Source: a virus
Taxonomy: Duplodnaviria > Caudoviricetes
Length of the DNA stretch: 64,000 bases
Virus record (IMG/VR): IMGVR_UViG_2791355221_000004
Location: 1 to 64,000 of that record
Strand: one strand, 5' to 3'
Translations under genes and position numbers: made by a program
The notes under the pieces: generated by a model
Seen by the model: only the letters and a program-made list of their open reading frames with translations
The model's database searches: none
Told to the model about the DNA's origin: nothing
Part shown: positions 5,340 to 48,376 of the stretch, piece after piece
Layout of the letters: the number at the start of each line of letters is the position of its first letter
How positions within the stretch are numbered: the stretch's first letter is position 1

Positions 5340-5460
5340 AAAACTTACGCTTTAAGCACATCTATTCAATCGGATAGGTGGATTTAAAGCGTAAGTTTTC
5401 GTATGTGAAGCCGTATGTAATGTCCCCTCTTCCAACTTTAAGCAGCTATACATACGAAAC
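5340..5460 (+). ncRNA. Structured two-hairpin leader, homologous to 56258-56377
   Basis: 16-bp stem 5340-5355/5384-5399; second stem 5397-5406/5450-5459 with pyrimidine-rich loop. Confidence 0.6.
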
Positions 5461-5514
5461 TTAGGCATGCAAAGGAAGACGCAGGAAAGACTGAGGTGAG
5501 GAGATTGAATTTCA

Positions 5515-6237: not shown

Positions 6238-6279
6238 GTCAATTACCTGCAAAAACATAATTAATAGGAGGAATTTACT

Positions 6280-7056
6280 ATGCAATACGGATCACGTGAA
6301 ATTTGTAATGTTGTTATTAAAGACTTTAAAACCAAGGAGCCAGTGGCTTACCTTGAATCTCTTACAACGTCGGATATCGAAGTAAAAGGAACAACGGTTT
6401 GGGCCAAAGGCGGAAGAGGCGCCGCTAAGCGGATTGGTTGGGATTCTGATAAAGAGATTACACAAAAAATGGAATCTGCTTTGATCACGAAGGAGTCCTT
6501 TGGTGTACTGACAGGCAGCGCATTTACGGCAACGGCCAAACCTGTACATAAAAAGGAAGCAATTCTGGTTACTAGTGACGCTTCGGATAAAGTTGTCATT
6601 TTGTCATCGAAACCAACAGCTGTTGCCGGCTATTTGACACTGTTTTATAAAACAGAAGACGGCTCAAGCCTTGGCGAAAAGCTGACTGCTACGGTTACTA
6701 CGACCGGAACAGGGGCTGCTGCTGTCACGAAAGCCAAATTTGCAGGAGCCATTCCGGCGGTAGGAGATTTGGTCATTGTGGATTATTATGTTGATGCTCC
6801 GGCTAAATCTCAAACGATTTCAATCGATGCGGATAAGTTCCCAGGAACTTATTTTCTGGAAGCCGAAACACTTTGGAGAAATGAGGATGGTGTAGATGTA
6901 CCTGCCTTGTATACCATTCCTAAGATGAAAATTTCTCCGAATTTCACGATTTCGATGGGAATGTCCGGCGAACCTAAGCCGTTCAGTTTCCAAGCTGAAA
7001 TTCTAAAGGATAACAAATCACAATCGATGGTTATTATTGATTTGTTGGAAGAATAG
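6280..7056 (+). CDS. Major tail (tube) protein
   Basis: 258 aa, beta-rich; strong SD, own terminator; precedes chaperone and tape measure. Confidence 0.75.
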   Translation: MQYGSREICNVVIKDFKTKEPVAYLESLTTSDIEVKGTTVWAKGGRGAAKRIGWDSDKEITQKMESALITKESFGVLTGSAFTATAKPVHKKEAILVTSDASDKVVILSSKPTAVAGYLTLFYKTEDGSSLGEKLTATVTTTGTGAAAVTKAKFAGAIPAVGDLVIVDYYVDAPAKSQTISIDADKFPGTYFLEAETLWRNEDGVDVPALYTIPKMKISPNFTISMGMSGEPKPFSFQAEILKDNKSQSMVIIDLLEE

Positions 7057-7065
7057 CAACTGCAA

Positions 7066-7093
7066 ACAGGAGACTTAGGTCTCCTGTCTTTTA
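7066..7093 (+). terminator. Intrinsic terminator/attenuator after tail tube gene
   Basis: ACAGGAGAC/GTCTCCTGT stem plus T tract. Confidence 0.75.
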
Positions 7094-7124
7094 TTAAATT
7101 TAGTAACGGGAGGGGACACATTTC

Positions 7125-7565
7125 GTGGCAAAGAAACTAACACTTACGGCTATGAAGAAAGATCATACCAAAATCTTTAATGAAAAAACAAAGATCACCT
7201 TATCCAATGGCGATTACTTACATATTTATAAGGAATTTAAGACGACATCTATTCAGAAATTAGTCGTTGATTATATGGAGATTATCGAAGAGTTGAAAAA
7301 GAGACAAATCGGTTTTAAAACTTTTAAAGATATGACGTTTGTTTACTACATGTTATTACTCAAACATTTTACAGACTTAAACAATATCCCAACTGACATC
7401 GAAAAAATGATTATTATTTGTGAGGAACTCATCAATTTGGATTTACTTGAGCAAATTATGCAAGCCTTCCCCGAGGATCAATTGAAAAAAATTAAAAAGC
7501 TGCTCGATAAAGCAAATGAGAATAGTGAGCTTCTAGGAAAACACTTAAATGACCCAATGACATAA
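7125..7565 (+). CDS. Putative tail assembly chaperone
   Basis: Helical-looking 146 aa protein between tube and tape measure genes. Confidence 0.6.
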   Translation: MAKKLTLTAMKKDHTKIFNEKTKITLSNGDYLHIYKEFKTTSIQKLVVDYMEIIEELKKRQIGFKTFKDMTFVYYMLLLKHFTDLNNIPTDIEKMIIICEELINLDLLEQIMQAFPEDQLKKIKKLLDKANENSELLGKHLNDPMT

Positions 7566-7579
7566 AAGGAGGAAATACA

Positions 7580-7726
7580 ATGTCTAAATATGAAATGGAT
7601 GAAACAACCCTAAAAAATTTAACCATCTTTCTTGGAAGAGTGAATCTTACGGGTGCAGAGGTCGGAGAATTCAATAAAATCATTCAAGCATTATCCAATC
7701 CGATTCCAGAAAACATCGAAAAGTAA
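7580..7726 (+). CDS. 48-aa hypothetical protein (not in ORF track)
   Basis: AAGGAGG SD; MSKYEMDETTLKNLTIFLGRVNL...PENIEK. Confidence 0.65.
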   Translation: MSKYEMDETTLKNLTIFLGRVNLTGAEVGEFNKIIQALSNPIPENIEK

Positions 7727-7809
7727 ATTTCTTATTCGAACATTCTACATCAGTTGAATGGTGTAGGAGATTGGACGAAGAAATAGAAAACAAAGGAGTG
7801 AAGCCTATA

Positions 7810-10800
7810 ATGGCAGGGGAAAATCTCAATATTCTGCTTCAAGCAATTTTAAATAAACCAGCGTCTCTAACTGAACTTAACAAAGCTATCAAAGAGTTGG
7901 AAAATGATCCGAGATTACAAAAGATTAAAATCAAAATGGATATGAACACGAAAATCCTTGATATGTTAACTACTTATAATAGAACAATTAATCAGATTAC
8001 ACAGTCCATTCAAGCTCAGAACTATGTAGTAAATAACCATACGAATACGCTTAGTAGACAGACCCAGGCATTGAAGGATGCAACGGAGGCTCAGAAGCAA
8101 TTTGTTGCCGAGAAGCAGAAGAAGGTGGGTGTTTCGGATGCTGCGAAGACAGTTGGCGCTGTTACTCCAGATAAAAGTAACTTCATCGAATCATCGAAAT
8201 CAGTGAAAGAAATAGTTGATTATGTCGTGGCAATTTCTTCTGTTGGTGATGCTTTTAAAAAGTTGAAGGTTGCTGGTGATTGGTTTTTAAATTTTGTCGG
8301 AGTCTCAGCTACTAGAATTAGTCAGTTAAGTGCAAAAATAGTGAGCTTTATGACATCTTTAGGATACTCAGCAGCAGCTGCGAATGTTTTTGCAGCCTCA
8401 CTTATTACTCTTGCTACAACGTTGCTTCCGTTAGCGATTATAACAGGTGTCACTTTTGCCATATCTAAATTTGTTGAAGTCATCCAAAAGAAAAAGGCCG
8501 AAGAAAAAGCACTTGCTGACCAGCAAAGTGTTATTGCTAATAGTTGGTACACACAGCAAGATAATATTAAATTACTTGTTGCTGAATATAATAATTTAAA
8601 TTCAATTAAGAATAGAACTCAGACACAAGATGAGCGGTATCTAGAAATTTCAAATCAATTGGCCTCTCTTTTGCCGAATCTTGCGGCTTCCGTAGACCAA
8701 AAAGGACAAGCTCATCTTAAAAATGCTAAAGCGATTGAACAAGAACTTGCTTATGCTGGAAAATTGTCAGCTTTAGAGAGCGGTAAAAAAATTGCTAATT
8801 CTGAAAATAATGTTAAAGAGATTATTGACAGCAGAAAAAAAGTGCAGAATGAAATCGATGGAATAGATTCTAAATTAACTCTTGGCTTTACTATTGTTGG
8901 AACAACAGCGATCAAAATACCTGAGTCTGAATTGATTACTTTACAGATGAGAAAGCTTGGACTAGAGCAACAGTTAACCGGTATGACTGGTAAACTAAAA
9001 GATGAAATAACCTCTACTACTGCTTTAATGTCTGGGATGAAACCAAATACTGCTGGTATTGAATCTTATAAAAATATTATTGATAACTTAGATTTGGATA
9101 AAATTGAACCTAAAGATGCTTCCAAAAAAATCTTTGATATTGGGAATGCGCTTAAGAATCTCCAAACAATTCAAAGTGTTAAAAAGACACCTGAATCAGA
9201 AAAGGCTTACTCAATTGCTTTGGGTGTATTGAGAAGTAATTTAAAACTAACTGATCAAGAGTTACAAGATTTCATTAAAACGATGAATAGCTCCAGTCCC
9301 TCAAGTGACAAAGCGTCAAATGATACAGTTAAGTTTGCTGACAGGTTAAGTAAATTAAAATCATATGCGGAAGATTCAAATGGTTCTTTCTCTTCTTTAG
9401 CATCCGCTTATCAAAAGCTTCAGCAAGGGGAACAACTGTCTACCCAAGAGACATTAAAGTTGTCCAATGAGCATCCATTGTTATTGGATTATCTGGCTAA
9501 GCATAATGGACTCATTGAAGACAAGGGAGAGATTTTACAATGGGTTGCAGGTGAAGAGCGCAAAACTGCCTTAGCGGAAGCCATAAGTTTAAATACTAGT
9601 GCTACAAACACCTATAATGCTTTGGAAACAAAACGTAAATTATATAAAAACTTCTACGAGGGAATCAATCCAGTTAACCCTCTAATCCAAGACGCAAATT
9701 TTATCAAAAAGTATGGTAAAAAGGAAATTCCAGAAGAAAATAATCCAGCGAAATTTAGTCCAATAACTTCAGCAGAACTTAAAGAGCAAGCTGAAGCAAA
9801 AGAGAAGATGCAACAAACAAAAATCTTAATGGATTTTCTTAGTAAACCTATTGAATTTCCTGCGAGTGCTCCTAAATCGGAAGTTTCATCCGGATCTTCA
9901 AGTTTTGAGGAATATAAAATCGATGCCTATAAAAACAGTTTGCAGGAACTCGACTTACAACTCAAAGAGTCCGAATCTATCATGTCTCGCTACACAGAAA
10001 CTTCGGAGAAGTATCGTGATGAATTATCGAAACAAGTTGAAATAGCAAAAGAAAAGCTTAAATTAACATCCGAGGAAGGTTTAACTGTTCGAGCCAAAAT
10101 AACAGAGCTGGAAAGTCAACTTTCAAAGACTTCAGACAAGGAAAAGAAAAATCAGATAACCCAACAATTAGATGAGACAAAAAGCAAGCTGGCAGAGCTT
10201 TCGAACTCTTGGTGGGATTACGAGGTAAATATTGAACAATCTGAAAAGAAACTGAAGGAATCGCTATTTAATTTCTCCAAAGATTGGATCAATAATGAAA
10301 AGTCTTCCATGGAGTTGCTTGGCCAGTCTGAAGTGGAAGTAGCTCAGATGGTATTCGATGCCTGGAAGCGGATGAGCGACAAGCGAGACCAATATACCAT
10401 TGAAGAACAAGATGAAATCAATAATAATCTAGCTCAGGCAAAGGATGCTTTGAAAAAATCTCATCTAGGAAATTCCGAGAATTGGATGAGCGAAGAATCT
10501 GAACGTATGCGTCTTACGGGTCATACAGAGATTGAGGTTGCTCAGATGGTTCTTGATGCTCGTAAACGAATGTTAGATGAGAACTGGACGAAAGAACGCG
10601 GTATCACTGAATTGAGTAAGGCAGAACGATTGAAAGCAGAAAAAGATGTAGCTAGTGCCTCATGGGATCTTATAAGTGTGAAAATTAATAAGGCTACTCA
10701 TGAAGTCAGTAATTACGATGATGCGCTGTCTGCTTCCAAAAGTAAAATGTCTATGCTTACTGTTGGTTCCGCTGACTACACAATGGAATTATCCAAGCAA

Positions 10801-28804: not shown

Positions 28805-29590
28805 ATGATGATTACTGAAAAACATCCCGAATTAAGTCCTGCTACTAAACAATTAAAGACTATCATGATTGGGCTTTACAAGGGTCTGGAGAAGCATAAA
28901 GCAAAAATTGAAAACTCTAAAAAGAAGAGAACTGCAAAGAACTATCTTCCAAATCAAAGAGCCACATATGTGAGTGACGAGATTGCGGAAACAATAGAGG
29001 CAACTGACTCATCTTTATCTGTTGTCATCCAAAATTCAGCAAATCACGAATTCGTTGTAATAAAGATAGAAGAGAATAATGTGAATGTAATTGTCATGCA
29101 TTTACGTGAGGGAGAAGACCTTCCAACTAAGTCTCGATTCCGTGGCAATTATTCAGCATATCATAATGATCGTTTGAAAATACATAGTATTAAGTCAGAA
29201 CCAATAGGACAACTAGAAGCAATACTTCAAACATTTAATGATACAATTGCACCCATTGTCTTAGATCATACAACGCTTCCTTTCACTTGGATTGTTACAT
29301 ATGATGGTCGGAAGTATACTGATTCTACAATAAAAATTGGCGCACTAGCTCCTGATCAAGAAAATTGGATATTCCGAGATGATATTACTGGATTTTTTAG
29401 ATCTTGTGTAAACGATGTTCCAGCCGAGCTTTTACCAGAAGAAGAAAGTACATTCGGATCAGACACAAACGTAGTTTACATTAGTTCAATAGAGAAAAAC
29501 ATACAAGAGACAGAAATACCTCTTGAATTTAAACCGAATGTAGTTTCTCCTATAAAGAAGGAGAATGATTTAGATGGGGACAGCATTTAA
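28805..29590 (+). CDS. Hypothetical protein coupled to XRE-ImmA gene
   Basis: Overlaps the next gene. Confidence 0.7.
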   Translation: MMITEKHPELSPATKQLKTIMIGLYKGLEKHKAKIENSKKKRTAKNYLPNQRATYVSDEIAETIEATDSSLSVVIQNSANHEFVVIKIEENNVNVIVMHLREGEDLPTKSRFRGNYSAYHNDRLKIHSIKSEPIGQLEAILQTFNDTIAPIVLDHTTLPFTWIVTYDGRKYTDSTIKIGALAPDQENWIFRDDITGFFRSCVNDVPAELLPEEESTFGSDTNVVYISSIEKNIQETEIPLEFKPNVVSPIKKENDLDGDSI

Positions 29591-30737
29591 TGGTAAGGCT
29601 TTAAAAGATGCAAGGCTAGCTAGAGGATATACTCTGATTGAACTCTCTAAAATGATTAATGTTTCAAAACAAGCTATCTCTCAGTATGAAGCGAATATAA
29701 ACCCGCCTAAAGCCGAAGTTTTAATGAGAATAATTAATACATTGAAATTTCCAAGGTATTATTTTTATTCAGACATGGGAAATCGGTTTGAAGGTAATAC
29801 TTTTTTCAGGGCCAATTCCTCTGCTACAAATCGTTTAAGAGATATGCAGAAAATCAGAGCAAATTGGATTGCACATATCAGGGATTACTTGGAAAAGTTT
29901 ATTACCTTCCCAGAATTAAATTTACCAGATTTGAGTAATTATGAAGATTCTATATGGGATGATGTTTCAATTGAACACCTTGCAGCACACGTTCGTTCCT
30001 ATTGGGGACTGAGTGATAAACCTATTACTAATTTGATAAATGTCTTGGAGAAGAATGGCATAATTGTTTCTTCAATAAAATTAGATTCTGATAATGTTGA
30101 TGCATTCTGTCAATTTAGGCAACCCGATAAAGCAATGATTGTGTTAGCGGAAGATAAGGAAAGTGCAGTTAGAAGACAATTCGATGCAGCTCATGAATTA
30201 GGCCATATTCTAATGCATAAGTTTGATGTGGATAATCAGACAGAGTTACCAAAAGAACAATTTAAACTTATGGAAGCCCAAGCTGATAAATTTGCATCCT
30301 GTTTTCTATTAACTGAGAGTACGTTTAGAAAAAGCATAGAAATAACGTCTACCACTATTCAAGGATTTATTGAACTAAAGAAAATATGGAATGTGTCAAT
30401 TGGAGCTATGGTACGAAGAAGTCGCGATCTTGGATTAATTAGCGAAAGTAGATATACTTCAATTCAAAAGCAAATGTCAATGAAAAAAATGCGTAAAAGA
30501 GAACCTCTTGACGAGATCATAGAAATTAGTGAACCTAACCTACTTAAACGTGGTATCATCATGCTTATTGATGCCAAAGTTAAGACAAAAGCTGATATAG
30601 TCGAGGAGATTATGTTGCCTTCTGAAGAAATTGAGATATTATGCAGTCTGGATGAGAAATATCTAACTGTAGTCGAACATGAAGCTGTGTTATCTCTTAA
30701 ATCTAATAAGGATTTGTCCGAATCTGTTATTGGCTAA
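29574..30737 (+). CDS. XRE HTH plus ImmA/IrrE Zn-metallopeptidase
   Basis: N-terminal HTH (SKQAISQYE); RRQFDAAHELGH; EAQADKFA. Confidence 0.9.
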   Translation: MGTAFNGKALKDARLARGYTLIELSKMINVSKQAISQYEANINPPKAEVLMRIINTLKFPRYYFYSDMGNRFEGNTFFRANSSATNRLRDMQKIRANWIAHIRDYLEKFITFPELNLPDLSNYEDSIWDDVSIEHLAAHVRSYWGLSDKPITNLINVLEKNGIIVSSIKLDSDNVDAFCQFRQPDKAMIVLAEDKESAVRRQFDAAHELGHILMHKFDVDNQTELPKEQFKLMEAQADKFASCFLLTESTFRKSIEITSTTIQGFIELKKIWNVSIGAMVRRSRDLGLISESRYTSIQKQMSMKKMRKREPLDEIIEISEPNLLKRGIIMLIDAKVKTKADIVEEIMLPSEEIEILCSLDEKYLTVVEHEAVLSLKSNKDLSESVIG

Positions 30738-31045
30738 AAAGAAATTGATTCAAATAGGGAAATCTTCTAATTAAACTTATAAGTGTTTCGTTATCGACTA
30801 TAGAGAAGGTATTCTTTTTCACTAAGACTTTCAAAGGGAATAACCCTCTCTAGAGTCGATAACTGAGTTCTTATAACCCCAAAATCTCATCTGCAAATTC
30901 ACAAAGTTCACCACTTACAGATTCCACAATTCCACTCCACTTACTAAAGAATTAATACAAATTATAAACTCTATCTGCAGCGTTCCATCCTCTTAATTTT
31001 ATATGGTAATATTAAACTATTAACGTAGGAGAGGAAGAATATCTA

Positions 31046-31468
31046 TTGAATCGTGAGCGAATTAAAGCTATATTACCTGAAGTTGAAAAGCTAATTGCTT
31101 TATCTAAAGAGTATCAAAGGAAATTGAATAATGGGGTATCAAGCTATTTAGCAGATGTAGAAGTTAATAGCTACTTAAGTAAGTTTGATCTTACTGATAT
31201 TATCTTGATTGAGGCATTAATGTACATAGGACGTGAGGATTATATCCCGCGGGAAAGATACGAGAGCGAAGTGGACTATTATAGAGAAGTAGAAGAGTTC
31301 TACGAAAGATACGATGTTGATGATATTGTTGGAAATAAGGTTGAATCTTTATTTAGAAATAGTGATACAAAGCTAACAAGGATAGAGCAAATGGTTTCAA
31401 AGACACCACTTTCTCAATACCTAGAGCAAGGGCTTCACGTAATCAGAGTTAAGAGGAAATTGGCGTAA
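31046..31468 (+). CDS. DUF3775-like protein
   Basis: ALMYIGRED and PLSQYLEQGL motifs. Confidence 0.55.
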   Translation: MNRERIKAILPEVEKLIALSKEYQRKLNNGVSSYLADVEVNSYLSKFDLTDIILIEALMYIGREDYIPRERYESEVDYYREVEEFYERYDVDDIVGNKVESLFRNSDTKLTRIEQMVSKTPLSQYLEQGLHVIRVKRKLA

Positions 31469-31596
31469 GTAATTCTTGTGAATTAGTGGTTGATATCAAC
31501 AGGAGAAGTCAAGATGAAACAAATTATAATGATTGAAATTTAACAGAAAGTAGGAAACAAGAGGGTACCTCATTAATTAGGGTACCCTCTGCTCAT

Positions 31597-32076
31597 TCAG
31601 ATAAACACCATCACATACTTACCATTATAATCTTCTTCGCCACATTCATCTGTAGTTTCAATTTCCTCCCATTTGTAATAGCCATTAACACATCTAAGAA
31701 TCGTATCTCTTATAATAGCTTGTTCACCAACATAACCAATCCATTCCGTTATTTCCTCAATCTTGGCCAGCTCTTTATTTACTTCGTAAAAACCATCATA
31801 TCCGAGCATGAAAGGGTAGAGGCCTTGATCAGATAAACTACGGTCAAAGTAAACAGGAAACCATGTTGGTTCAACATAAGCATTATCTTCGCTGTAATAC
31901 TCTCTATAAAGCGTTTCTAGCTCATCACTGTTCATATAGTTGATATGTTCAATCTGACTTGTTACCGCCACTCTATGACCTTTCAGTAAGCTTGCAATGT
32001 AGTCCGAGTGAGTGCCACTCAATTCCATATCTATGATTGCTAATTCATGAGTTAATGAGTTCAATTGGTTTTCCAT
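31597..32076 (-). CDS. Acidic hypothetical protein
   Basis: GGAGG SD; bidirectional hairpin at about 31560-31590. Confidence 0.7.
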   Translation of the reverse strand: MENQLNSLTHELAIIDMELSGTHSDYIASLLKGHRVAVTSQIEHINYMNSDELETLYREYYSEDNAYVEPTWFPVYFDRSLSDQGLYPFMLGYDGFYEVNKELAKIEEITEWIGYVGEQAIIRDTILRCVNGYYKWEEIETTDECGEEDYNGKYVMVFI

Positions 32077-32438
32077 ATATTTGTTACCTCCGAATGTAAA
32101 TTATTAAATTTTTGAATATATCCAATGTCTTATTTCATTTTTATTAAATGTGGGTTATGATTATTAAGAAATCTTTATAATTCAGTTTTGGAGTGTAAGA
32201 GGGTAGACTGTTCGCTGCAATTTACTCTCAAACTTCCTATAAATTCAATCAATTGTCATCACATCCGTTTCCTTTGATAATTAAAGTTTACCAACAATTA
32301 GGCGATTTTTAAACTAGCTGAATTGTGATTTTAGAGGTAAATGTAGGATTGATTTTCCAGTTATAATATGCATTTGTGTTATATTTTGTCGAACTTTTGT
32401 CGAATAAAAGGAAAAAAAATAACCCTTTCGGGTTAGCA

Positions 32439-32960
32439 TTAATGTAAAAGTACGTTTATTTTTGTTGCAGATAATGTCTTCATATCAGAAATATCTTTCT
32501 CTTTACCAAGTGCAGGTTTTAAGGCAGAATCTATAAATTTTGCATAGACTTGAGTGAAAATTAGATCCTTACTATCGCTAAACTCCTCAGAGAATACAGC
32601 CCAATATTTAAATGAATCATAATATAACACCTTATCCATATTAATTAAAACCTTACTGTGGGCAACAACGAAATTCTTCATCTGAGTTAACATTTCTATA
32701 ATATCAATTTCTTTGTGAACATATATGTAAGTATCAGTTTTGGTTGTAATCACAGCTTTTGTTGTTCTTGTACATTCTACATAAAGTATTTCATTTATCG
32801 GCAACCACTCGGCAACTTTTGTCTTCTCATTTGTTACGAGTAGTGTTTTTCTATCGTTTATGATATTAGCAATGTCTTCAATTACTTCCTCCTCTACATC
32901 ACTACTTCGAAGTTGATTAAGCAATTCTGTTAGTCTCTGTAGCATACACTTATCCCCCAA
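32439..32960 (-). CDS. Stand-alone LytTR-domain regulator (no receiver domain)
   Basis: INEILYVE...FVVAHSKVLINMDKV LytTR signature. Confidence 0.75.
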   Translation of the reverse strand: MGDKCMLQRLTELLNQLRSSDVEEEVIEDIANIINDRKTLLVTNEKTKVAEWLPINEILYVECTRTTKAVITTKTDTYIYVHKEIDIIEMLTQMKNFVVAHSKVLINMDKVLYYDSFKYWAVFSEEFSDSKDLIFTQVYAKFIDSALKPALGKEKDISDMKTLSATKINVLLH

Positions 32961-33051
32961 TAATCACTATTAATTGTTTATCTATAATTATAAAACGATT
33001 CTCTCCCAAAAGAAGTTTCAATGAGAGAGAATCATTTATAACTTCTTTTAA

Positions 33052-33150
33052 TTAAACTTGCTCAGGATCATGTAAAAAAAATACTTTGCTAGTTACTCCA
33101 ATAATTACAACAAGACAAGTAATCAATAAAACCATAGCTAGTTTTTTCAT
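33052..33150 (-). CDS. agrD: AgrD-like autoinducer propeptide, 32 aa (not in ORF track)
   Basis: GGAGG SD; MKKLAMVLLITCLVVIIGVTSKVFFLHDPEQV. Confidence 0.7.
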   Translation of the reverse strand: MKKLAMVLLITCLVVIIGVTSKVFFLHDPEQV

Positions 33151-33155
33151 ATATG

Positions 33156-33857
33156 CTAGACCTCCTTTTTATCATTTTTGAGGCCATATACTTCAGGAGC
33201 ATATTCGGCTTCATTTCTCTTTATAGAAAAGTAAATTAATATTAAAGTTATAATAATCAGCCCAACAAAAACAAAAATAAAGTATTGTATAGTTAGTGAT
33301 TGATTAAAAGCATAAAGAAGGGCAGTAGAAAGAATTACACAAACAATAACAGTACCTATGAAATGGTTCATTTTTTTTATTTTTGAATCTGCTCTAAAAG
33401 CGAAGCCTTGCTGTCTAAAGATTTTAAAGCTAATACAAATAAATAAGCAAAAGATGAACTCGATTAGTTGAAAAGTATACGTCTTTACAGTAAACGCATC
33501 TTTTAACTCTTGCATACTATTAAAATATCCAGCATATATAAACAAACCAATGAGAATAGCTTGCAAGAATACAAAAATAATATAACTTACTGAAGGAACG
33601 ACAATAGAATACATCCAATTGCGTTCTTTAAAAACAAACTTAAATAACATTATTAGCGAAAATATTTGTAGAACTACGAATATTTCTCCAACATCATATA
33701 TGACAAAAAAATAAGAGAATAGGGACATAATTACAGATGTTGAAATTACCTCTTTTATGTAATACTTAATCGTAAATTGAAAAATTGTGAGCATTAAAAT
33801 AATGACGGATAAGAATTCAATTGAAGAGAAGATCATAAAGTTAACAAAGTTAATCAT
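33156..33857 (-). CDS. Multi-TM protein resembling an AgrC sensor domain, without kinase domain
   Basis: 233 aa, about 7 TM helices; no HisKA or HATPase region. Confidence 0.65.
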   Translation of the reverse strand: MINFVNFMIFSSIEFLSVIILMLTIFQFTIKYYIKEVISTSVIMSLFSYFFVIYDVGEIFVVLQIFSLIMLFKFVFKERNWMYSIVVPSVSYIIFVFLQAILIGLFIYAGYFNSMQELKDAFTVKTYTFQLIEFIFCLFICISFKIFRQQGFAFRADSKIKKMNHFIGTVIVCVILSTALLYAFNQSLTIQYFIFVFVGLIIITLILIYFSIKRNEAEYAPEVYGLKNDKKEV

Positions 33858-33861
33858 GATT

Positions 33862-34374
33862 TCACCGTTTCTTCCTGATTGGTATAAGTGTCATGGAACT
33901 AACGAAGAGTGCTGCATCTATAACTTGATTATTTAGAATAATTACCACAAGACATATAGCTATCGAGAGAAACTTTCTTTTCCTAACATTTGTTCTATGA
34001 CTTCGCTTAGTTGGTGCAAAAAGTAATATAAATATTGCTGCTAACGATAAGAATATGTAGCGATGATTTTCTATGAATGGGGCTGCTAAAGGTAAGATAA
34101 CCAATAAGCTGCTAGTAATGAAAATGCAGTGTTCAGCCTTCCTCAAGTGAAAACCACCGTTTAATGTTCGCAACAAACCGAAAACAATTAAACCAATCAA
34201 AGTATTTATTAAATTGTGAACCATTATTCCAGTAGCTAGTGAAATGAGAAGTATTGAGTAGTTGATAATGACATTAGATATCTTAGTAGATAGCTTTTTC
34301 ATATCTTCTACCAATCCAATTTCAACTACTATGGATAACTTGTTTGCTATTCTATTAGATAAAAATGCTACCAC
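33862..34374 (-). CDS. agrB: AgrB peptide-processing protein
   Basis: LRTLNGGFHL...HC (catalytic His/Cys) and LFAP motifs. Confidence 0.85.
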   Translation of the reverse strand: MVAFLSNRIANKLSIVVEIGLVEDMKKLSTKISNVIINYSILLISLATGIMVHNLINTLIGLIVFGLLRTLNGGFHLRKAEHCIFITSSLLVILPLAAPFIENHRYIFLSLAAIFILLFAPTKRSHRTNVRKRKFLSIAICLVVIILNNQVIDAALFVSSMTLIPIRKKR

Positions 34375-34471
34375 TCAAACCCTCGTCTCTATTTCATTTA
34401 TTTTCCAGCGTCTTCATTACTAATATACATCGCACATTTACTTTAGTCAACTTAATATCGTTATTTTTATT

Positions 34472-34669
34472 TTATACTCCTATTCGATCACACTTATGTG
34501 CAACAGTGAAGGTACTCGTTTCAATAATTCTTTTTTTCATACCGACATCGGTACATATCTGTTTAAGTACTTCTAAATCATCACTTTCAATTACCTTGCC
34601 ATTTGGCTTGTAGAGTTTCCATACATCTGGATTAGTACTGATTAATTGTTGAATGCGATACTTTTTCAT
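34472..34669 (-). CDS. Small hypothetical protein
   Basis: AAAGGAG SD. Confidence 0.6.
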   Translation of the reverse strand: MKKYRIQQLISTNPDVWKLYKPNGKVIESDDLEVLKQICTDVGMKKRIIETSTFTVAHKCDRIGV

Positions 34670-34783
34670 TGTGAGTGCTCCTTTCTGGGCAGGATTAATA
34701 AGCTTTTAATTGGTATTATAGTATTATTTTTATTATAATGATTATCTATTTCAAGGGGAGAAGTACGCTCCCTCGGGCGGTTT

Positions 34784-34853
34784 ACCGCGACCATATTGCC
34801 CGATGGACAAGATGGGTTTCGACTGATAACCAATCAGCAGCTCATCAGGCGGT
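34784..34853 (-). ncRNA. Type I hammerhead ribozyme, 3' of recombinase
   Basis: ACCGC-CUGAUGA-stem II-GAAA-stem III-GUC^GCGGU. Confidence 0.8.
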
Positions 34854-35806
34854 TATAGTTTACTCAACGTACTAGATGTATTGTTCTTGTAATTATTCAT
34901 TGTTTGGACATAATGACGATCAATGATTTCAATAGAACTATGTCCAGTATGTTGACGGATAGTTGATAAATCAAAACCTTCATCATGTGCCGCTGTTATG
35001 TGTCCACTTCTAAGCGAATGCCCAGCGTAGAGTTCAGGATTGAGTCCAGCAGCCTTTGCATGTTTTTTTACAATATCAGCTACTGATTCACCCGAAAGTC
35101 GTTCACCAACGTTATTGGCCTTGTTGACTGCACGAAATATAGAATCGCTTTTGATTCGTGCTTCTTTTAACCAGACAAGAAGCGTTTCGATTGGACAATA
35201 GTTGTTGTTAGCAGGGAGAATTACTATTTTTCTTTGCTTTTTCTTCTTTTGCTCGAATACGTCAATCTCCAAGCCTTTATCAGTAAAAACCAAATCTTCC
35301 ATATTAATTGAAACAATATCACCACGTCTTAAGGCAGTAGACCATCCAAGTAAAATTAATGCTTTGTCCCGTTTTCCTTGCAATGTACTGGTGTCAATCA
35401 CATCAATGATTCTCTTTAAATCATCTAATACCATAGCTTTTTTGGAAGTAGAATGATTACCTTTTGTTCGTGCAATAGAATCCATTAATTCTTCAACAAT
35501 TGGATGAGTAGTGTTTGACATAAGTTTGGCCATTTTATGTGCTTTCGAGATGGATGAAATTTTCCTTTTTATGGTTGAATGTTTGCATGTTTTGGATTCT
35601 TCAGATATGAAATGTATCAAAGTTGCTTCACTAGCAGGTAAAGGGAGGTAATTGAATTTAGAGCAGAACTGCTTAAAGTTATTCCAATCAGATTCATATG
35701 CAAGTTTGGTGTTAGCGGCTTTAGCGTTTTCCAATATTGATGCAATTCTTTCTTGATCCGCTTGAGGCATCGCTGAAAGATTTATTTCATTAGATAACAT
35801 GAACAT
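34853..35806 (-). CDS. Tyrosine recombinase (Cre/XerC-like)
   Basis: LRRGD, GHSLRSG, HTGHSS and RHY catalytic residues. Confidence 0.92.
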   Translation of the reverse strand: MFMLSNEINLSAMPQADQERIASILENAKAANTKLAYESDWNNFKQFCSKFNYLPLPASEATLIHFISEESKTCKHSTIKRKISSISKAHKMAKLMSNTTHPIVEELMDSIARTKGNHSTSKKAMVLDDLKRIIDVIDTSTLQGKRDKALILLGWSTALRRGDIVSINMEDLVFTDKGLEIDVFEQKKKKQRKIVILPANNNYCPIETLLVWLKEARIKSDSIFRAVNKANNVGERLSGESVADIVKKHAKAAGLNPELYAGHSLRSGHITAAHDEGFDLSTIRQHTGHSSIEIIDRHYVQTMNNYKNNTSSTLSKL

Positions 35807-35831
35807 ATGGATGACCTCCTTAGATTAATTT

Positions 35832-35893
35832 ACCGCTACGCTTTCCATAGAAGGAAAACGTTTCGCTAGAATCTCACTAGCTCATCAGGCGGC
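35832..35893 (-). ncRNA. Type I hammerhead ribozyme, 5' of recombinase
   Basis: CCGC-CUGAUGA-GCUAG/CUAGC-GAAA-CGUUUUCC/GGAAAGCG-UA^GCGG. Confidence 0.88.
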
Positions 35894-36115
35894 TTAAAAG
35901 ATGGCTTCACTAAAACTGCATAACTCTTTAGTGAATGAATCACGAAGTTTAGTCCATCCATTTAGAAATGCATTACAATCAAATTCAGTGAAATGCTTTT
36001 TGACCATATCGACCAACCAAAACTCTGCATTTTCATCTTCGCCAAACTCTGGATCTTCTCCGTGAAGTACCACCAAGTCAATTAATTCTTCTTTAGCTGT
36101 TTTAGTGTTTGTCAT
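35894..36115 (-). CDS. Hypothetical protein
   Basis: AAGGAG SD. Confidence 0.65.
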   Translation of the reverse strand: MTNTKTAKEELIDLVVLHGEDPEFGEDENAEFWLVDMVKKHFTEFDCNAFLNGWTKLRDSFTKELCSFSEAIF

Positions 36116-36179
36116 ATGTATATCGCTCCTTTAGAATATGTTTTGTTGTTGCTACCTAACTAGAGAGTCGTAAGAACAG

Positions 36180-36491
36180 CTACATTTGTTGCATTGCCAT
36201 TCCGAAACAGTAGTGTTCAGCCGCTTCGTCAACTGGTTTTGTTTTAACAATTTCATATGATGATCCTATGTATGAAGGTAGATCCTTGAGCTGTGTGTAA
36301 AAGGTATCGCGGCAATGGGTGAAGGATACAATAACATAACCTTCAGTAACCCAGCCTTGAACCGTTTCATGGAACTCAGCTTTGGTGTAGAAGCCAAATG
36401 GTGGTACAGATACAAGGTCTTTACCGCTAATAATGATTTGCTTCACCTTAGAGTCCCATGCAGTTTTTTGTTTCAATTGAAAAGGTGTCAT
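36180..36491 (-). CDS. Hypothetical protein
   Basis: AAGGAG SD. Confidence 0.65.
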   Translation of the reverse strand: MTPFQLKQKTAWDSKVKQIIISGKDLVSVPPFGFYTKAEFHETVQGWVTEGYVIVSFTHCRDTFYTQLKDLPSYIGSSYEIVKTKPVDEAAEHYCFGMAMQQM

Positions 36492-36505
36492 TGTGGTTAG
36501 CTCCT

Positions 36506-36667
36506 TTATTCGTATCTGTGGTAGTTTGAACTTGTTATAGGTTGGTTAGCTCCGTACTCTGCTCGCCACTTTGAAAGCTTATTGCGCCACATTTTAACTT
36601 GCTTTTCGTTACCTGCCTCTCGTGCCAGCCTGATCTTTTCAATAATTTGATTGTAGCGATTGCTCAT
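36506..36667 (-). CDS. 53-aa basic protein (not in ORF track)
   Basis: AAGGAG SD; MSNRYNQIIEKIRLAREAG... Confidence 0.6.
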   Translation of the reverse strand: MSNRYNQIIEKIRLAREAGNEKQVKMWRNKLSKWRAEYGANQPITSSNYHRYE

Positions 36668-36711
36668 TGAGGCAACTCCTTAATTTTTCGTTTGTTTAAC
36701 TCGATACTCAT

Positions 36712-36766
36712 ATAGTATCACTTAAATAGTGACACGTCAATAGTGTATCTTTATATGTGATACTAT
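36712..36766. promoter_or_regulatory. Operator/promoter region of the leftward operon
   Basis: ATAGTATCAC/GTGATACTAT inverted repeat; minus strand TTGACG-17-TACTAT. Confidence 0.65.
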
Positions 36767-36840
36767 TTTTATTTATTTTTTTAAAGTAATATGTTATCTT
36801 TTATATATCGCTTTTTAAGGAAAGGACATTGTGAGAAGCT

Positions 36841-37140
36841 ATGTCAAAAATTACTCTTCATTTAGATGAAATATTAAATGAGCTTGGAATAACTAGAAAT
36901 CATTTAGCGGTGGAAGCGAAAGTTAGACCAACAACGCTTTTAGAAATGGTTCACGGCAAAACTCAAGCAGTGAAGTTTGATACATTAATCAAAATTCTTG
37001 ATACTTTGAATATTATTGCTTTTAAGAATTGCTTCGAACGTAGATACACCATAGGTGATTTAATTAAATATGAATTCACTTTAAGAATGGTCAATGGAAT
37101 ACCCATTGATTTAATGGATGACGATTTTGAAGAAGTATAG
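36841..37140 (+). CDS. XRE/Cro-like HTH repressor
   Basis: ITRNHLAVEAKVRPTTL HTH; divergent from the operator region. Confidence 0.85.
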   Translation: MSKITLHLDEILNELGITRNHLAVEAKVRPTTLLEMVHGKTQAVKFDTLIKILDTLNIIAFKNCFERRYTIGDLIKYEFTLRMVNGIPIDLMDDDFEEV

Positions 37141-37151
37141 TCTTAGTTCTC

Positions 37152-37177
37152 AGTGGCTTAGCAAGCCGCTTTTTTTG
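37152..37177 (+). terminator. Intrinsic terminator
   Basis: AGTGGCT/AGCCGCT stem plus T tract. Confidence 0.7.
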
Positions 37178-37189
37178 TTCCTATATTTG

Positions 37190-37246
37190 GAACATTTGTT
37201 CTTATTTCGGTATTCGTATTGTAATATAAAACACTTGTTTTGTAAA
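37190..37246 (-). promoter_or_regulatory. LexA box plus leftward sigma-A promoter
   Basis: GAAC-ATTT-GTTC (37190-37201); TTTACA-17-TACAAT (37246-37218). Confidence 0.65.
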
Positions 37247-37355
37247 ACAAAACATTTTACGTTGAGTGTAAAGTAAAAAATAACAATTATGCTAATTTGT
37301 ATTTGGTGTTATTCTAATCATGCAGGAATATCCTGTAAACTAATCATAAGGGAGA

Positions 37356-38255
37356 ATGATAAGAAGAATGACAAATGAGATTCAGGTAAAAGGTACAGTT
37401 AGTTTTATGGGGAAAGAGATCCCAAAAGTATTTGGAGGGTTCGGAGAAGACAAGCCAGTGTTGTTGGCAAAAACAATTGCGAAGATCCATGAAAGAGATT
37501 TGTTTAAAGTTAATGAGTTGATTAACAACAACATTGAGCAGTTTAATATTGAAGGTGCTACGGATTTGATTGATTTAATCTCAATCCTTTCGAAGGATTC
37601 ACTTTTAGAGTTTGGGTTCACAAAGCAATCTATTGCAAACTCAAAAAACATCTACCTCTTATCTGAGCGTGGGTATAAAATTCTAATCAAGGCTATGGAA
37701 GATGATATGTCTTGGGAAGTATATCATAAGCTATTGAATGAATATTTTAACTTCAAAGAGCAACAGCAGTTCGACCTTTCGAAACTTTCACCAGAATTGA
37801 TTATGTTCAAAACCTTATGGGATGGATTAGCTAAAACTCAGTTGATAGCACTTGAAAATCAAACAGAGATTAAAGAAGCTAAACAAGAAATTAAACAAGT
37901 ACAGAATGTTGTTGATGATATCCGCGAGACGATTGTCCAACGTGATGACGATTGGAGAGATTCAATCAACCAACTAATAAAGAAGGCTGCTAAGAATTTG
38001 GGTGGACGTAATGATGACTTTGTGACTGTTAGAAGGGAATCATATGAACTACTTCAAGAACGTGCTAGTTGTCGCTTAAAACAACGGGTTAAGAACATTC
38101 AAGATAGGATGCGTGAACAAGGCATTAGAGAGACAGACGTTAAGAAAGCAAACAATCTTGATGCAATCGAAGCAGATAAGAAGTTAAAAGAAATCTATTT
38201 TAGTATTGTTAAAGAGCTTTCAATTAAATATGGAAATGATAAAAGGGTAGTGTAA
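37356..38255 (+). CDS. ORF6N-domain phage antirepressor
   Basis: GGFGE..LAK.IA.IH and IYLLSERGY motifs. Confidence 0.8.
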   Translation: MIRRMTNEIQVKGTVSFMGKEIPKVFGGFGEDKPVLLAKTIAKIHERDLFKVNELINNNIEQFNIEGATDLIDLISILSKDSLLEFGFTKQSIANSKNIYLLSERGYKILIKAMEDDMSWEVYHKLLNEYFNFKEQQQFDLSKLSPELIMFKTLWDGLAKTQLIALENQTEIKEAKQEIKQVQNVVDDIRETIVQRDDDWRDSINQLIKKAAKNLGGRNDDFVTVRRESYELLQERASCRLKQRVKNIQDRMREQGIRETDVKKANNLDAIEADKKLKEIYFSIVKELSIKYGNDKRVV

Positions 38256-38570
38256 AGTAAAAATAATACATATAAACAAAGTGTGGTTACTAGATGAATA
38301 GGCAAAGTAACCACACTCATTTTTAATGAAATCGAGGTGACTATATATTTATTGTGTTATACAAAAAGTTGTCAATAAAAAAGTCAAGTATCAAGGCCAG
38401 TCGAAGCAAAGTGATGATGGGGAAATGATGAAACTCATTAACAGGTTAAAAGAGGAATGGAAAATAGAAGCTTCCAAAACTAGCATAAGTTAAAGAAGAA
38501 GGCACAAAATGTTGATCCATATAGTGGAAAGTGTTTTAATATATATACAACAACTAAAGGAGCGACAAAG

Positions 38571-39164
38571 ATGACAATAAACCAAGAAGATGAAAGTAAA
38601 AGTGAAAAAGAATCGTTGCGTAAATACATTCTTAACATGGAAGTTGAAAAAGTCGAGTTCAAAAAAGCAGTAGTGGATTACATTGGTGTTTGGTACGAAA
38701 AGAACGCAAGAAAGTTGATTACCGATAATGAAGAAACGCTCAAATTACTAGATACTGCTATATTAAAAGCATTTAAAGAAGATGTACGCAAGCTAATTGA
38801 AAATGCTAGTGAGTATGTAGAGAAATATTTTGATGATGAAAAATTGTGGTGGCACACTAACGGACATAGAGCTTTAGTTTTTAATAATTCGGAATTACCA
38901 AGTGAAATCAATATAAGCTTAAAAGCGTTAGCTGGTGAATTGGGAAGTGTGTTGGATAGACATGAATTAATACTAATTAGTGGATCTAGTGCAATTTCAA
39001 GGATGGAAAATATTGAACAGTTGATTCAATCCTATGAAAAGTATGATACGTTGACTCTTCGAGCAGAACTATTGAAAGATATTATTAATAGTAAAGAAAA
39101 GAAAATTAAGGACAATTCTAAGGTTGAGGATAACTCTATAGGCGATTTGTGGGATTCATTGTAA
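38571..39164 (+). CDS. Hypothetical protein
   Basis: AAGGAG SD; own terminator. Confidence 0.7.
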   Translation: MTINQEDESKSEKESLRKYILNMEVEKVEFKKAVVDYIGVWYEKNARKLITDNEETLKLLDTAILKAFKEDVRKLIENASEYVEKYFDDEKLWWHTNGHRALVFNNSELPSEINISLKALAGELGSVLDRHELILISGSSAISRMENIEQLIQSYEKYDTLTLRAELLKDIINSKEKKIKDNSKVEDNSIGDLWDSL

Positions 39165-39558
39165 GCCATTATACATTTTAAATAATTTCCCTGACATTTG
39201 TAGTGTCAGGGTTTTTAGTGTTTACTTTTGCTATGTGATTTCTATTGTTATCAATTGGCTAATCTTTAGAGTTTGACATATAATGGGAAATTGTATTCAC
39301 TAAAGGGTATCCATCAAAATCATTTTCCTACATGATGAACAACTGATGAAAGAACAATTTTAATGCGAGTTATATAGATAAATTATTTTAAAGTAAAAAA
39401 TTAATTTAGGGTTTAAGGAGCCTATTAAGGGTTCTATTTTATTCAACTTTATCAAGAACTCTAGTTTTTGAGATACCAAATATTAGAATATTAATATTAC
39501 TAGAAACTAACAAAAATATATTGTCAATATTCCTATGTTTTCCATTACATAGTATAAT

Positions 39559-40653
39559 ATGACTATAAAATTTAAGGGGAACTCTACTATGAGGAAAAAA
39601 CTACAAGTATTCATCTCTTCGACTTTTACAGATTTGAGAGATGAAAGACAAGTTGCTGTAAAATCTGTCTTAAACACTGGACATATTCCTGCTGGTATGG
39701 AGTTGTTTACAGCTGGAGATGAATCACAAAAGGAAATAATTAAGAGATGGATAGATGAGTCAGACGTCTACGTATTAATTTTAGGTGGTCGTTATGGATC
39801 AATAGACAAAGATACAGGTAAAAGTTACACACATTGGGAATATGACTATGCAGGTGAAATAAGTAAACCACGATTCGCTATTGTTTTGAGCGATTCCGCG
39901 ATACAAAACAAAATAGTTAAAATTGGATATAAAGATGCTACAGAACAAAATAATCCACAATTACTTAAGAATTTTAGAGAAGATTTACTAGGAACAAAAC
40001 TAATTAGTCCTGTGGATGACGATAAAGATATAGAGATTAGTATCTTCAAATCATTGAGGGAGATTGAAAATAGAAATGATTTATCGGGTTGGGTATCTGG
40101 CAAGGATGTTCCAGATGTGAACGGATTATTGAATGAAAATGCGAGACTATTGAAGGAAAACGCAAAGTACTTACTTGAGATTGATAAGTTAAAGGTTAAA
40201 TCATCGAAAACTGATTTAATAAATGGGTACGAATATGATGAATTAATTAAAATATTAACAGATACAAAAATTGTTTTGCCTAAAGAAGTTGATCCTGATA
40301 CAAAAGAGATTAGTTATTTGCAATTATTCAAGTCTGTCAAAAATCATTATGCTGTAGGAATCAGTAATGCTTATGGTATGAATGAAAGTGCAAAGTTATT
40401 ATTTTTTAAAGTAGCTCCCACATTAATGATCTATGGTTTAGTTGATAAAGTAAAATCAGGAAAATTAGAAAAAATCCAAACGTCTAAGGAAGGATTTAAA
40501 TTTCTAGCGAGGTTAGAATTAGATGGGATTCAAGATGATAAAGAAGAAGTCGACAACAAAGGTAACGTTACCAAGGCAAAACCAACTATAGAGAAAGAAA
40601 CAGCTACAAAAAGAAAACTAAAGGAAAAAGAGCAATCAGCAAATTTACGATAA
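39559..40653 (+). CDS. DUF4062 (TIR-like/SLOG-related) domain protein
   Basis: QVFISSTFTDL..ER, GMELF, GGRYGS and SYTHWEY motifs. Confidence 0.85.
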   Translation: MTIKFKGNSTMRKKLQVFISSTFTDLRDERQVAVKSVLNTGHIPAGMELFTAGDESQKEIIKRWIDESDVYVLILGGRYGSIDKDTGKSYTHWEYDYAGEISKPRFAIVLSDSAIQNKIVKIGYKDATEQNNPQLLKNFREDLLGTKLISPVDDDKDIEISIFKSLREIENRNDLSGWVSGKDVPDVNGLLNENARLLKENAKYLLEIDKLKVKSSKTDLINGYEYDELIKILTDTKIVLPKEVDPDTKEISYLQLFKSVKNHYAVGISNAYGMNESAKLLFFKVAPTLMIYGLVDKVKSGKLEKIQTSKEGFKFLARLELDGIQDDKEEVDNKGNVTKAKPTIEKETATKRKLKEKEQSANLR

Positions 40654-42994: not shown

Positions 42995-43099
42995 TCCCTT
43001 CTATGTATTTGTGTTTCTTTGGTACTTCTTTATTATAAGTTATTTTTAGTTTAAAGTCAAATGTTATTTTTATTTTATAGAATGAGGCTCGTAACGGCG

Positions 43100-46424: not shown

Positions 46425-46556
46425 TTTATATAAAATAAAAATAACTGTTTACATAAAATAAAAGTCGTGTTACATTGTTAATGGGAGGTGTTGAAAATGG
46501 TTTAAAGGCATTTAATTAAAAGTAAAAATAATATTATAAATAAAAAAGGAGTAATT

Positions 46557-48344: not shown

Positions 48345-48376
48345 TAACAATAAATAAATATAAAATAAAAATAATA

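Follow-up and report, generated by a model that had tools for sequence, protein, structure and literature searches.

We analysed a stretch of 64,000 nucleotides (nt), positions 1 to 64,000 of the Caudoviricetes record IMGVR_UViG_2791355221_000004 in IMG/VR and hereafter the window, and followed up an agr-like gene cassette on its minus strand, in which an AgrB-type peptidase, a membrane protein, a small peptide precursor and a LytTR protein are encoded side by side. The cassette occupies 32420-34476 and consists, in this order, of a promoter-like site, the AgrB gene, the membrane protein gene, an open reading frame (ORF) of 32 amino acids (aa), a long hairpin, the LytTR gene and a terminator. 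A first-pass annotation, made from the sequence alone, had described a co-oriented agrB, an all-membrane protein, an AgrD-like peptide and a stand-alone LytTR protein, and all four are present on the minus strand, with open frames and at the coordinates given there. The lack of HisKA, HATPase and REC domains, which it had also claimed, was borne out by Pfam scans that gave no match to any of them in the four cassette proteins or in the scanned neighbours at 27503-40653.

The first gene of the cassette (33862-34374, GTG start, 170 aa) encodes a membrane cysteine peptidase of the AgrB type, matched by phrog_10353 and by Pfam AgrB with 49.8 bits against a cut-off of 23. Its residues His76 and Cys83, the catalytic pair according to work on S. 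aureus AgrB, are invariant in all 17 aligned cassette AgrBs. The second gene (33156-33857, phrog_15604) encodes a stand-alone seven-helix membrane protein of 233 aa, which we propose as the peptide receptor on the basis of profile and structure homology. The 32-aa AgrD-like precursor (33052-33150) was recognised by its ribosome site, its position in the AgrD slot and the H-x-P-E part of the AgrD motif, and is followed by a long RNA hairpin (32986-33043), detected by its folding energy, in the gap before the LytTR gene. The latter (32439-32945) encodes a receiver-less protein of 168 aa with a fold match to the LytTR domain of AgrA; its start is likely the ATG at 32945 rather than the TTG at 32960, and a protein collection contains the 168-aa form. 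An intrinsic terminator-like hairpin with a U-run (32420-32435, minus strand) closes the cassette, and the promoter-like site preceding AgrB (34422-34476, minus strand) reached 10 of 12 in a consensus scan.

Membrane protein and regulator

The membrane protein matches no Pfam or NCBIfam family. Its AlphaFold2 model is confident, with a predicted local distance difference test (pLDDT) of 92.4 and a predicted template modelling score of 0.88, and shows seven long helices; with the N-terminus placed outside, 10 of the 11 Lys/Arg residues of the loops lie inside and 1 outside. An exhaustive phmmer search of 1.84 billion representatives (E <=0.001) returned 97 relatives, of which 92 are 187-246 aa long, the longest has 293 aa and none is of kinase length. 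A sensor profile (A1) built from 48 of the relatives matched 55 of 61 related genomes, and together with the lengths this indicates that the stand-alone form is old and has been retained. The same profile also matched the N-terminal halves of two proteins of 454 and 466 aa in genome G047 (E 2.9e-32 and 9.8e-28), which end in HATPase_c and adjoin AgrB, a 47-aa AgrD and a REC regulator. In a structure search of the ESM Atlas, the first matches were HATPase_c_5 kinases of 422-430 aa (template modelling score, TM, 0.65-0.68 by query over 215-221 residues), and no solved structure resembling the protein was found by sequence profile or by Foldseek (best E 1.6).

Because the profile matches kinase halves, the ESM Atlas neighbours are kinases and the relatives are of stand-alone length, the membrane protein belongs, as judged from sequence and predicted structure, to the family of sensor domains found in agr-linked kinases, in which it stands alone, and is not a broken agrC. 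The first-pass annotation had named a truncated agrC as an outcome that would overturn its proposal; the homology to the sensor domain of agr-linked kinases is indeed there, but the truncation is not, and a recent one can be ruled out since the relatives are themselves stand-alone and full length. Such homology would make a receptor role more likely, not less. A CAAX/Abi-type protease or another enzyme was likewise rejected, as there is no Pfam or NCBIfam family and no solved relative, and neither a peptidase family nor a metal-binding motif was detected. Ser11, Phe26, Ser48, Gln130 and Phe154 are nearly invariant among the sensors. Compared with a true AgrC, which combines sensor, DHp and ATPase parts, the 233-aa protein has the sensor-type domain only, with no HisKA or HATPase.

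The LytTR protein scores 21 bits with Pfam LytTR, below the cut-off of 22.6, and its homologues in sister cassettes exceed that cut-off (32.1 and 44.9 bits). In the predicted structure (pLDDT 86.1), two helices (residues 2-32) precede a LytTR beta fold (about 34-132) and a single C-terminal helix, and the best matches in the PDB are the LytTR domains of AgrA (4xqn, E 4.9e-6, TM 0.77 by target), with ComE next. Residues 1-32 are modelled as two helices with no receiver, and there is no Response_reg match. Thus, the assignment is marginal by Pfam and firm by predicted structure. AgrA itself is a receiver plus LytTR protein and only the LytTR fold is found here, so that the protein is a receiver-less LytTR regulator such as those of HdrRM/BrsRM-type systems.

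Distribution and variants of the module

Loci matched by the sensor profile (19, the best per genome) have AgrB adjacent in 13 cases, a LytTR-like gene in 14 and both in 11. An AgrB profile made from 17 cassette AgrBs and run on 301 genomes of the order matched 190 of them; within the genus to which the window belongs, no more than 9 of 36 matched. Of 30 AgrB-centred loci (11 of them places already among the 19), 28 have a stand-alone sensor gene next to AgrB and 23 have a LytTR-like gene there; 21 of these 23 genes encode 108-157 aa. The four-gene kinase-less module is therefore widespread in this bacterial order, and the window belongs with the kinase-less cassettes of Paenibacillus and Brevibacillus, since all four parts are co-oriented in one block. 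The gene order is sensor, AgrB, peptide, LytTR in every other cassette examined, and AgrB, sensor, peptide, LytTR in the window and in a second cassette of the same genome, on contig C1.

Sensor and LytTR genes also occur together where AgrB is absent, in 3 of the 19 loci and on the chromosomal contig C28 of this genome, and because of this pairing they look like the signalling core of the module. The locus on C28 (C28:3183-5387) holds a distant stand-alone sensor homologue of 214 aa with no AgrB nearby, flanked on one hand by a 271-aa REC-LytTR regulator and on the other by a 216-aa protein with an XRE-like N-terminus and a LytTR-like C-terminus. The output side of the module is variable as well. 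In two chromosomal cassettes, the fourth gene, which follows AgrB and AgrD, encodes a much longer protein, of 606 aa (G055:C50, L063 2914-4734, minus strand) or 609 aa (G044:C136, L064 2457-4286, minus strand). Pfam resolves the former as an N-terminal LytTR fused to GGDEF and EAL, and the latter was recognised by the cassette LytTR model and by position only. The LytTR module stays in these fusion cassettes and the output changes. Such a fusion is an odd pairing, in that it joins a DNA-binding fold with enzymes of cyclic di-GMP (c-di-GMP) metabolism.

One close relative of the window cassette was found, with AgrB 65%, sensor 69% and LytTR 71% identical and of the same or nearly the same lengths; the longest contig given for each of its three proteins is 4892 bp, so that they most probably come from a single contig. 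Between the two sensors, identity is 11/23 (48%) in the outside loops, 118/170 (69%) in the helices and 32/40 (80%) in the inside loops and tail, these being small numbers from a single pair. Only one difference lies in the last 21 residues, where the gene end also carries the ribosome site of the peptide gene. The pattern fits a receptor whose outer face is free to change and whose inner face is under constraint.

Sensor genes may also be multiplied. In one genome (G058:C14, L027 2401-11194), about 13 paralogous stand-alone sensor genes directly precede a single AgrB-peptide-LytTR set, and in another (G059:C72, L029 9347-13720), about 6 paralogues lie some 6 kb from an AgrB set that has its own adjacent sensor genes. 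These arrays may be receptors for many peptide dialects or immunity-like genes. They bear on a different explanation, namely that the membrane protein belongs to peptide production, where it would help AgrB to remove the leader or to export the product, or would protect the producer from its own peptide, while the LytTR protein is an ordinary operon regulator controlled in some other way. The tight joining of the sensor gene to AgrB, which is constant and often takes the form of a 4-nt overlap, is what one would expect of such a partner, and rows of as many as 13 paralogues ahead of one AgrB-AgrD-LytTR set resemble orphan immunity arrays; moreover, S. aureus reportedly requires a membrane protease other than AgrB, MroQ, to remove the leader (PMC9388083). 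But the homology to the sensor half of kinases, the absence of any detected peptidase family or metal-binding motif, the pairing with LytTR genes in places that lack AgrB, and the variable outside and conserved inside loops all speak against a producer-side function, which we consider unlikely.

The peptide precursor

The precursor consists of a hydrophobic leader, Thr20-Ser21-Lys22, four hydrophobic residues, His27-Asp28-Pro29-Glu30 and two final residues. Its gene has a strong AAGGAGG-type ribosome site about 10 nt upstream of the ATG, and it occupies the same slot as a canonical 43-aa Cys-type AgrD in the C1 cassette. For comparison, small ORFs 3' of AgrB were extracted from the collected loci, requiring a ribosome site and a P-x-E/Q-L/I/V anchor, which yielded 33 distinct peptides besides that of the window, while nine AgrB rows yielded none under those criteria. 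The family pattern is Cys or Ser, four residues, and then H/Y/N-x-P-x-x-P-x-E-L. Cys or Ser stands exactly five residues ahead of the H/Y/N position in 23 of the 33; of the remaining 10, 9 carry a Lys one residue later and have no Cys or Ser at the canonical site. In the window precursor, Ser21 lies six residues ahead of His27, so that the first-pass annotation was correct in calling its spacing unusual, and Lys22 lies five residues ahead, at the usual ring-closing place. An agr-type AgrD has Cys or Ser five residues before the recognition tail, and the window precursor does not. It ends five residues after His27 (a tail of six residues), without the second Pro and the E-L.

As read from its sequence, the precursor would allow a six-residue lactone, a five-residue lactam or no ring. 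To our knowledge, lactam ring chemistry is not known for natural agr peptides, and among the literature matches listed, by their titles and abstracts, no natural lactam agr peptide is described. Precursors without Cys or Ser thus pose a chemical question, that is, which ring, if any, AgrB forms.

The shifted Ser and the short tail raise the further possibility that the prophage is a silent sender, whose precursor is not processed and which at most listens to the peptides of others, e.g., of the C1 prophage, or whose module is drifting towards loss. It would explain why the precursor stops five residues after His27 without the P-x-E-L tail of all 33 others, and it agrees with the long branches or low identities of AgrB, sensor and LytTR (AgrB at most 28% and sensor at most 36% identical, apart from one sister). 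On the other hand, the four frames are open, AgrB keeps His76 and Cys83, the peptide gene has its strong ribosome site, and the close relative retains 65/69/71% identity in AgrB, sensor and LytTR at similar lengths, as under purifying selection; we regard a silent or decaying module as improbable.

Transcription signals

The promoter-like site of AgrB has its -35 hexamer at 34445-34450 and its -10 at 34422-34427, with a spacer of 17 nt, and an A+T-rich 16-mer (34461-34476) precedes the -35. From the 16-mer to just past the -10, nearly the same sequence stands ahead of AgrB in the C1 cassette, though the proteins are only about 25% alike. Across the 9.18-Mb genome, there are 11 exact copies of this 16-mer, exclusively in two prophage islands (C1 83-170 kb and C56 178-233 kb). 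Its copies in the window lie at 34461-34476, 43064-43079, 46429-46444 and 48359-48374, plus six looser ones; allowing two mismatches, this makes 10 against 0.87 expected, and none of 100 shuffles reached 10. Several copies are found just ahead of -35/-10 pairs, often 2-12 nt from the -35 hexamer. The 16-mer looks like a phage-specific promoter element, possibly UP-like or factor-binding, and the cassette therefore seems to be wired to a phage-wide promoter class.

The hairpin between the peptide and LytTR genes has a minimum free energy of -24 kcal/mol (z -6.0), equalled by none of 200 shuffles, and is not followed by a U-run. The corresponding gap of the C1 cassette also folds (z -3.35). The window hairpin may be an attenuator, a processing site or a stabilising site. 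A scan of 31500-37500 at the Rfam gathering score gave no match, and LexA boxes were found in the window at 792 and 37190 only, with none at the cassette.

Just past the cassette terminator, at 32384-32404, there are two exact tandem copies of a 10-mer at 11-nt spacing, overlapping a promoter-like site that points to a 159-aa gene (31597-32076). The repeat is a candidate operator. A 19-nt repeat with a CUGAUGAG-type hammerhead core flanks the recombinase gene (34834-34852 and 35874-35892); the former copy is directly upstream of a 65-aa ORF and the cassette, so that transcripts reading on from the recombinase gene would be cleaved at this point. The 65-aa ORF (34472-34669, minus strand), which lies between the recombinase and AgrB and has a ribosome site, belongs to no Pfam family, has no counterpart in the C1 cassette and is possibly co-transcribed with the window cassette.

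Prophage context and second cassette

The window lies in an island of about 100 kb with 33-37% G+C within a genome of 45.6% G+C. The prophage setting proposed in the first-pass annotation held, with tail, portal and terminase genes around the cassette in addition to the low G+C. The left part of the island, up to about 28.2 kb of the window, carries tail genes and ends in an M15 peptidase gene and a tRNA-Val fragment by an intact tRNA-Val. The right part begins at that point and contains the cassette together with genes for a tyrosine recombinase, an XRE repressor, an anti-repressor, a ParB-like protein, terminase and portal, and has its own tape-measure and M15 peptidase genes further right. 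No third copy of the tRNA-Val repeat that would mark the far prophage end was found on contig C56. The tyrosine recombinase gene (34853-35806, minus strand; Phage_integrase 72.9 bits; phrog_216 and phrog_1, integrase) is directly upstream of the cassette, and because of this gene layout of the right part, the cassette is cargo, placed after the attachment-site region and before the recombinase. A gene on the plus strand (29574-30737), some 1.7 kb away, encodes a protein of 387 aa in which an XRE helix-turn-helix is joined to an ImmA/IrrE-type M78 peptidase domain; this protein may be a repressor-cleaving switch of the prophage.

The only other AgrB of the genome lies in a 170-kb low-G+C island on contig C1, so that both AgrBs are in prophage islands. 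The two islands are related, with terminases 92.6% and portals 78.1% identical, and the cassettes are far apart, with identities of 23% for AgrB, 30% for the sensor and 26% for the LytTR protein. A blastn comparison of window 28000-40000 with C1 80-180 kb gave a single match of 305 bp at 70% (window 39587-39887, C1:143034-143334), which sits within a DUF4062 gene (39559-40653) unrelated to the cassette. In the AgrB tree, 15 of 38 inner branches are open and the window and C1 copies are both on long branches; the two cassettes may descend from one insertion or from separate ones. The suggestion that the cassette jams a host agr system is a poor fit, as the two AgrB genes of the genome are both prophage-borne, though two AgrC-type kinases are encoded elsewhere. 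These (HATPase_c_5, frames of 432-433 aa) lie by LytTR proteins in DNA of normal G+C, at C23:371974-373984 and C45:~5400-8086.

The cargo position is relevant to what the cassette does for the phage. It may signal as proposed and yet serve lysogenic conversion, i.e., a density response of the host such as biofilm formation, sporulation or secondary metabolism, and not the lysis-lysogeny decision. In favour of conversion are the abundance of the module in chromosomes of the order (the AgrB type in 190 of 301 genomes), the two chromosomal cassettes with c-di-GMP enzymes as output, and the place of the cassette itself between the attachment-site region and the recombinase. However, the module has been recruited to a place beside the integrase or lysogeny switch in three unrelated phage types, and two related prophages with very different versions in one cell fit private channels for each phage. 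We consider conversion as the main role possible, if somewhat doubtful.

Proposed signalling route

Taken together, we give about an even chance to the reading that the cassette is a form of agr peptide signalling that works without a phosphorelay and travels as cargo next to the recombinase gene in a large temperate phage. In this scheme, AgrB would cut the precursor after Leu26 and close the fragment into a small ring, which would be a six-residue lactone if Ser21 is used and a five-residue lactam if Lys22 is; the product would be exported and bind the extracellular loops of the seven-helix sensor. Because phosphotransfer is impossible, the sensor would have to signal by touching the LytTR protein: its conserved cytoplasmic loop and tail would hold or release this regulator, which would then act on promoters. 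Published LytTR regulatory systems use membrane sequestration of this kind, through unrelated membrane proteins (PMC6193735), which would be an analogy for contact gating. We infer both this contact-gating mechanism and any role in lysis-lysogeny. Because the module adjoins a recombinase in three unrelated phage types, the most attractive guess for the output is a sensing of cell or phage density that feeds the maintenance or induction of the prophage.

Several observations weigh against this reading. No result here demonstrates binding between the sensor and either the peptide or the LytTR protein. The precursor has neither Cys nor Ser at the canonical position and, unlike all 33 other peptides, no P-x-E-L tail, and AgrB may not process it. 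The Pfam score of the LytTR protein is under the cut-off, and no LytTR-type direct repeats (9-mers, 18-24 nt apart, at least 8/9) were found in the three regions preceding cassette genes, where weaker repeats would escape. The tandem sensor paralogues, up to 13 before one AgrB, resemble immunity-gene arrays more than receptors. In the tree, the window AgrB has a long branch (2.45) and no partner with support, and the evolution of this protein may be fast or relaxed. Finally, the phage-wide promoter ahead of AgrB suggests control by the phage programme and not by autoinduction.

The boldest form of the phosphorelay-free reading joins all of its parts. Each large prophage of the lineage would have a private channel, an analogue of arbitrium assembled from agr parts, in which the peptide is a lysine-closed lactam or a six-residue lactone and a kinase-less seven-helix receptor gates a bare LytTR protein by contact, so that two mutually deaf dialects in one cell time maintenance or induction independently. 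We have little expectation that this picture is right in every part. The agr system is the textbook case of peptide sensing via a kinase and a phosphorylated regulator. A kinase-less version, if true, would be a second way to carry a peptide signal across the membrane. The cassette would also give the orphan class of LytTR proteins paired with membrane proteins an input ligand, which is encoded next door and can be synthesised. Repeated capture next to phage integrases, along with two divergent copies in related prophages of one genome, makes the cassette a candidate for phage-phage or prophage-host communication outside arbitrium.

Relation to known systems

With agrBDCA of S. aureus, the window shares a His/Cys AgrB, a precursor with a leader and an H-x-P-E-like motif, an AgrC-type sensor domain and an AgrA-like LytTR domain; it differs in that the sensor lacks DHp and ATPase and the LytTR protein lacks a receiver, so that there is no phosphotransfer, and in that the precursor has no canonical ring Cys or Ser. 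Arbitrium (AimR-AimP-AimX) of the SPbeta group of phages consists of a secreted peptide and a phage receptor near lysogeny genes, with dialects in related phages, and its linear peptide is taken up into the cell, where the receptor is a cytoplasmic protein of tetratricopeptide repeats (TPR). The likeness to the window lies in a phage-encoded peptide and receptor with differing dialects among related phages. There is, however, no homology, and the proposed receptor here is membrane-bound and the peptide putatively processed by AgrB. General Pfam scans, with no search directed at AimR, gave no TPR match among the cassette proteins and their neighbours. Arbitrium is also mentioned in a 2025 review, which repeats the statement that phage agr sets lack AgrA (PMC11945551).

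The phage phiCDHM1 of C. difficile carries agrB, agrD and a full-length AgrC kinase of 453 aa, with no AgrA and no LytTR gene (PMC3901668). It thus resembles the window in having agrB, agrD and a membrane sensor on a phage and in lacking AgrA, but it has the kinase and not the LytTR protein. In HdrRM and BrsRM of Streptococcus mutans, a membrane protein keeps a receiver-less LytTR regulator inactive, and the membrane proteins of this type carry DUF2154 or DUF3021 and are encoded after the regulator (PMC6193735). These systems resemble the window in combining a receiver-less LytTR protein with a membrane protein and no kinase. In the window, by contrast, the membrane protein is of the AgrC type, is encoded upstream of the regulator, lacks both DUF2154 and DUF3021 and is accompanied by genes for making a peptide. 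The comparison with LytTR regulatory systems drawn in the first-pass annotation is thus apt as an analogy and fails on the membrane protein family and the gene order. In a literature search whose coverage did not extend to supplements, no paper linking LytTR regulatory systems with agrB and no functional study of a kinase-less agr cassette was found.

The closest known systems are the kinase-less phage cassettes of the Brevibacillus phages Davies, Emery and Abouo and the Paenibacillus larvae phages Harrison and Paisley. For Davies, Emery and Abouo, a single sentence in Hargreaves et al. (2014) mentions AgrB, AgrD and membrane proteins lacking an ATPase domain, with no word of a LytTR gene (PMC3901668). 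A kinase-less cassette encoded by a phage, as the first-pass annotation had it, is thus present in the window but has precedent. Two phage-genomics papers name 'accessory gene regulator B' in tables or legends only. By hidden Markov models derived from the cassettes, we assigned gp44 and gp45 of Davies as sensors (E 1e-40 and 2e-42), gp46 as AgrB, gp47 as a 39-aa peptide and gp48 as LytTR-like (E 1.8e-14), and gp38-gp41 of Harrison, of which gp41 is annotated as a 'peptidase', match the same four families. In both phages, the module adjoins the integrase, as in the window. A tblastn search with the Davies AgrB matched 9 phage records, from 5 Brevibacillus phages, 3 Paenibacillus phages and 1 Ruminococcus phage, the last with a classical set of a 430-aa protein and a 242-aa REC-sized LytTR protein.

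In the same phage collection, window 31000-36000 (megablast) and the window sensor, LytTR protein and AgrB and the C1 sensor (tblastn) gave no match, and single-protein scans of viral and genome contig collections found no relative; the phage cassettes emerged only from the published mention and from the Davies AgrB. The Davies-type cassettes differ from that of the window in this very low protein identity, in their order (sensor-AgrB-peptide-LytTR against AgrB-sensor-peptide-LytTR) and in the peptide, whose tail is shortened in the window. The kind of cassette is therefore not unique to the window. What is new here is that a related prophage of the same genome carries another cassette of very divergent sequence, that these two cassettes hold the only AgrB genes of the genome, and that the window peptide has its Ser one place early, a Lys at the usual ring-closing position and a truncated tail. 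Of local interest are the reversed gene order, the two dialects in one lysogen and the odd short precursor.

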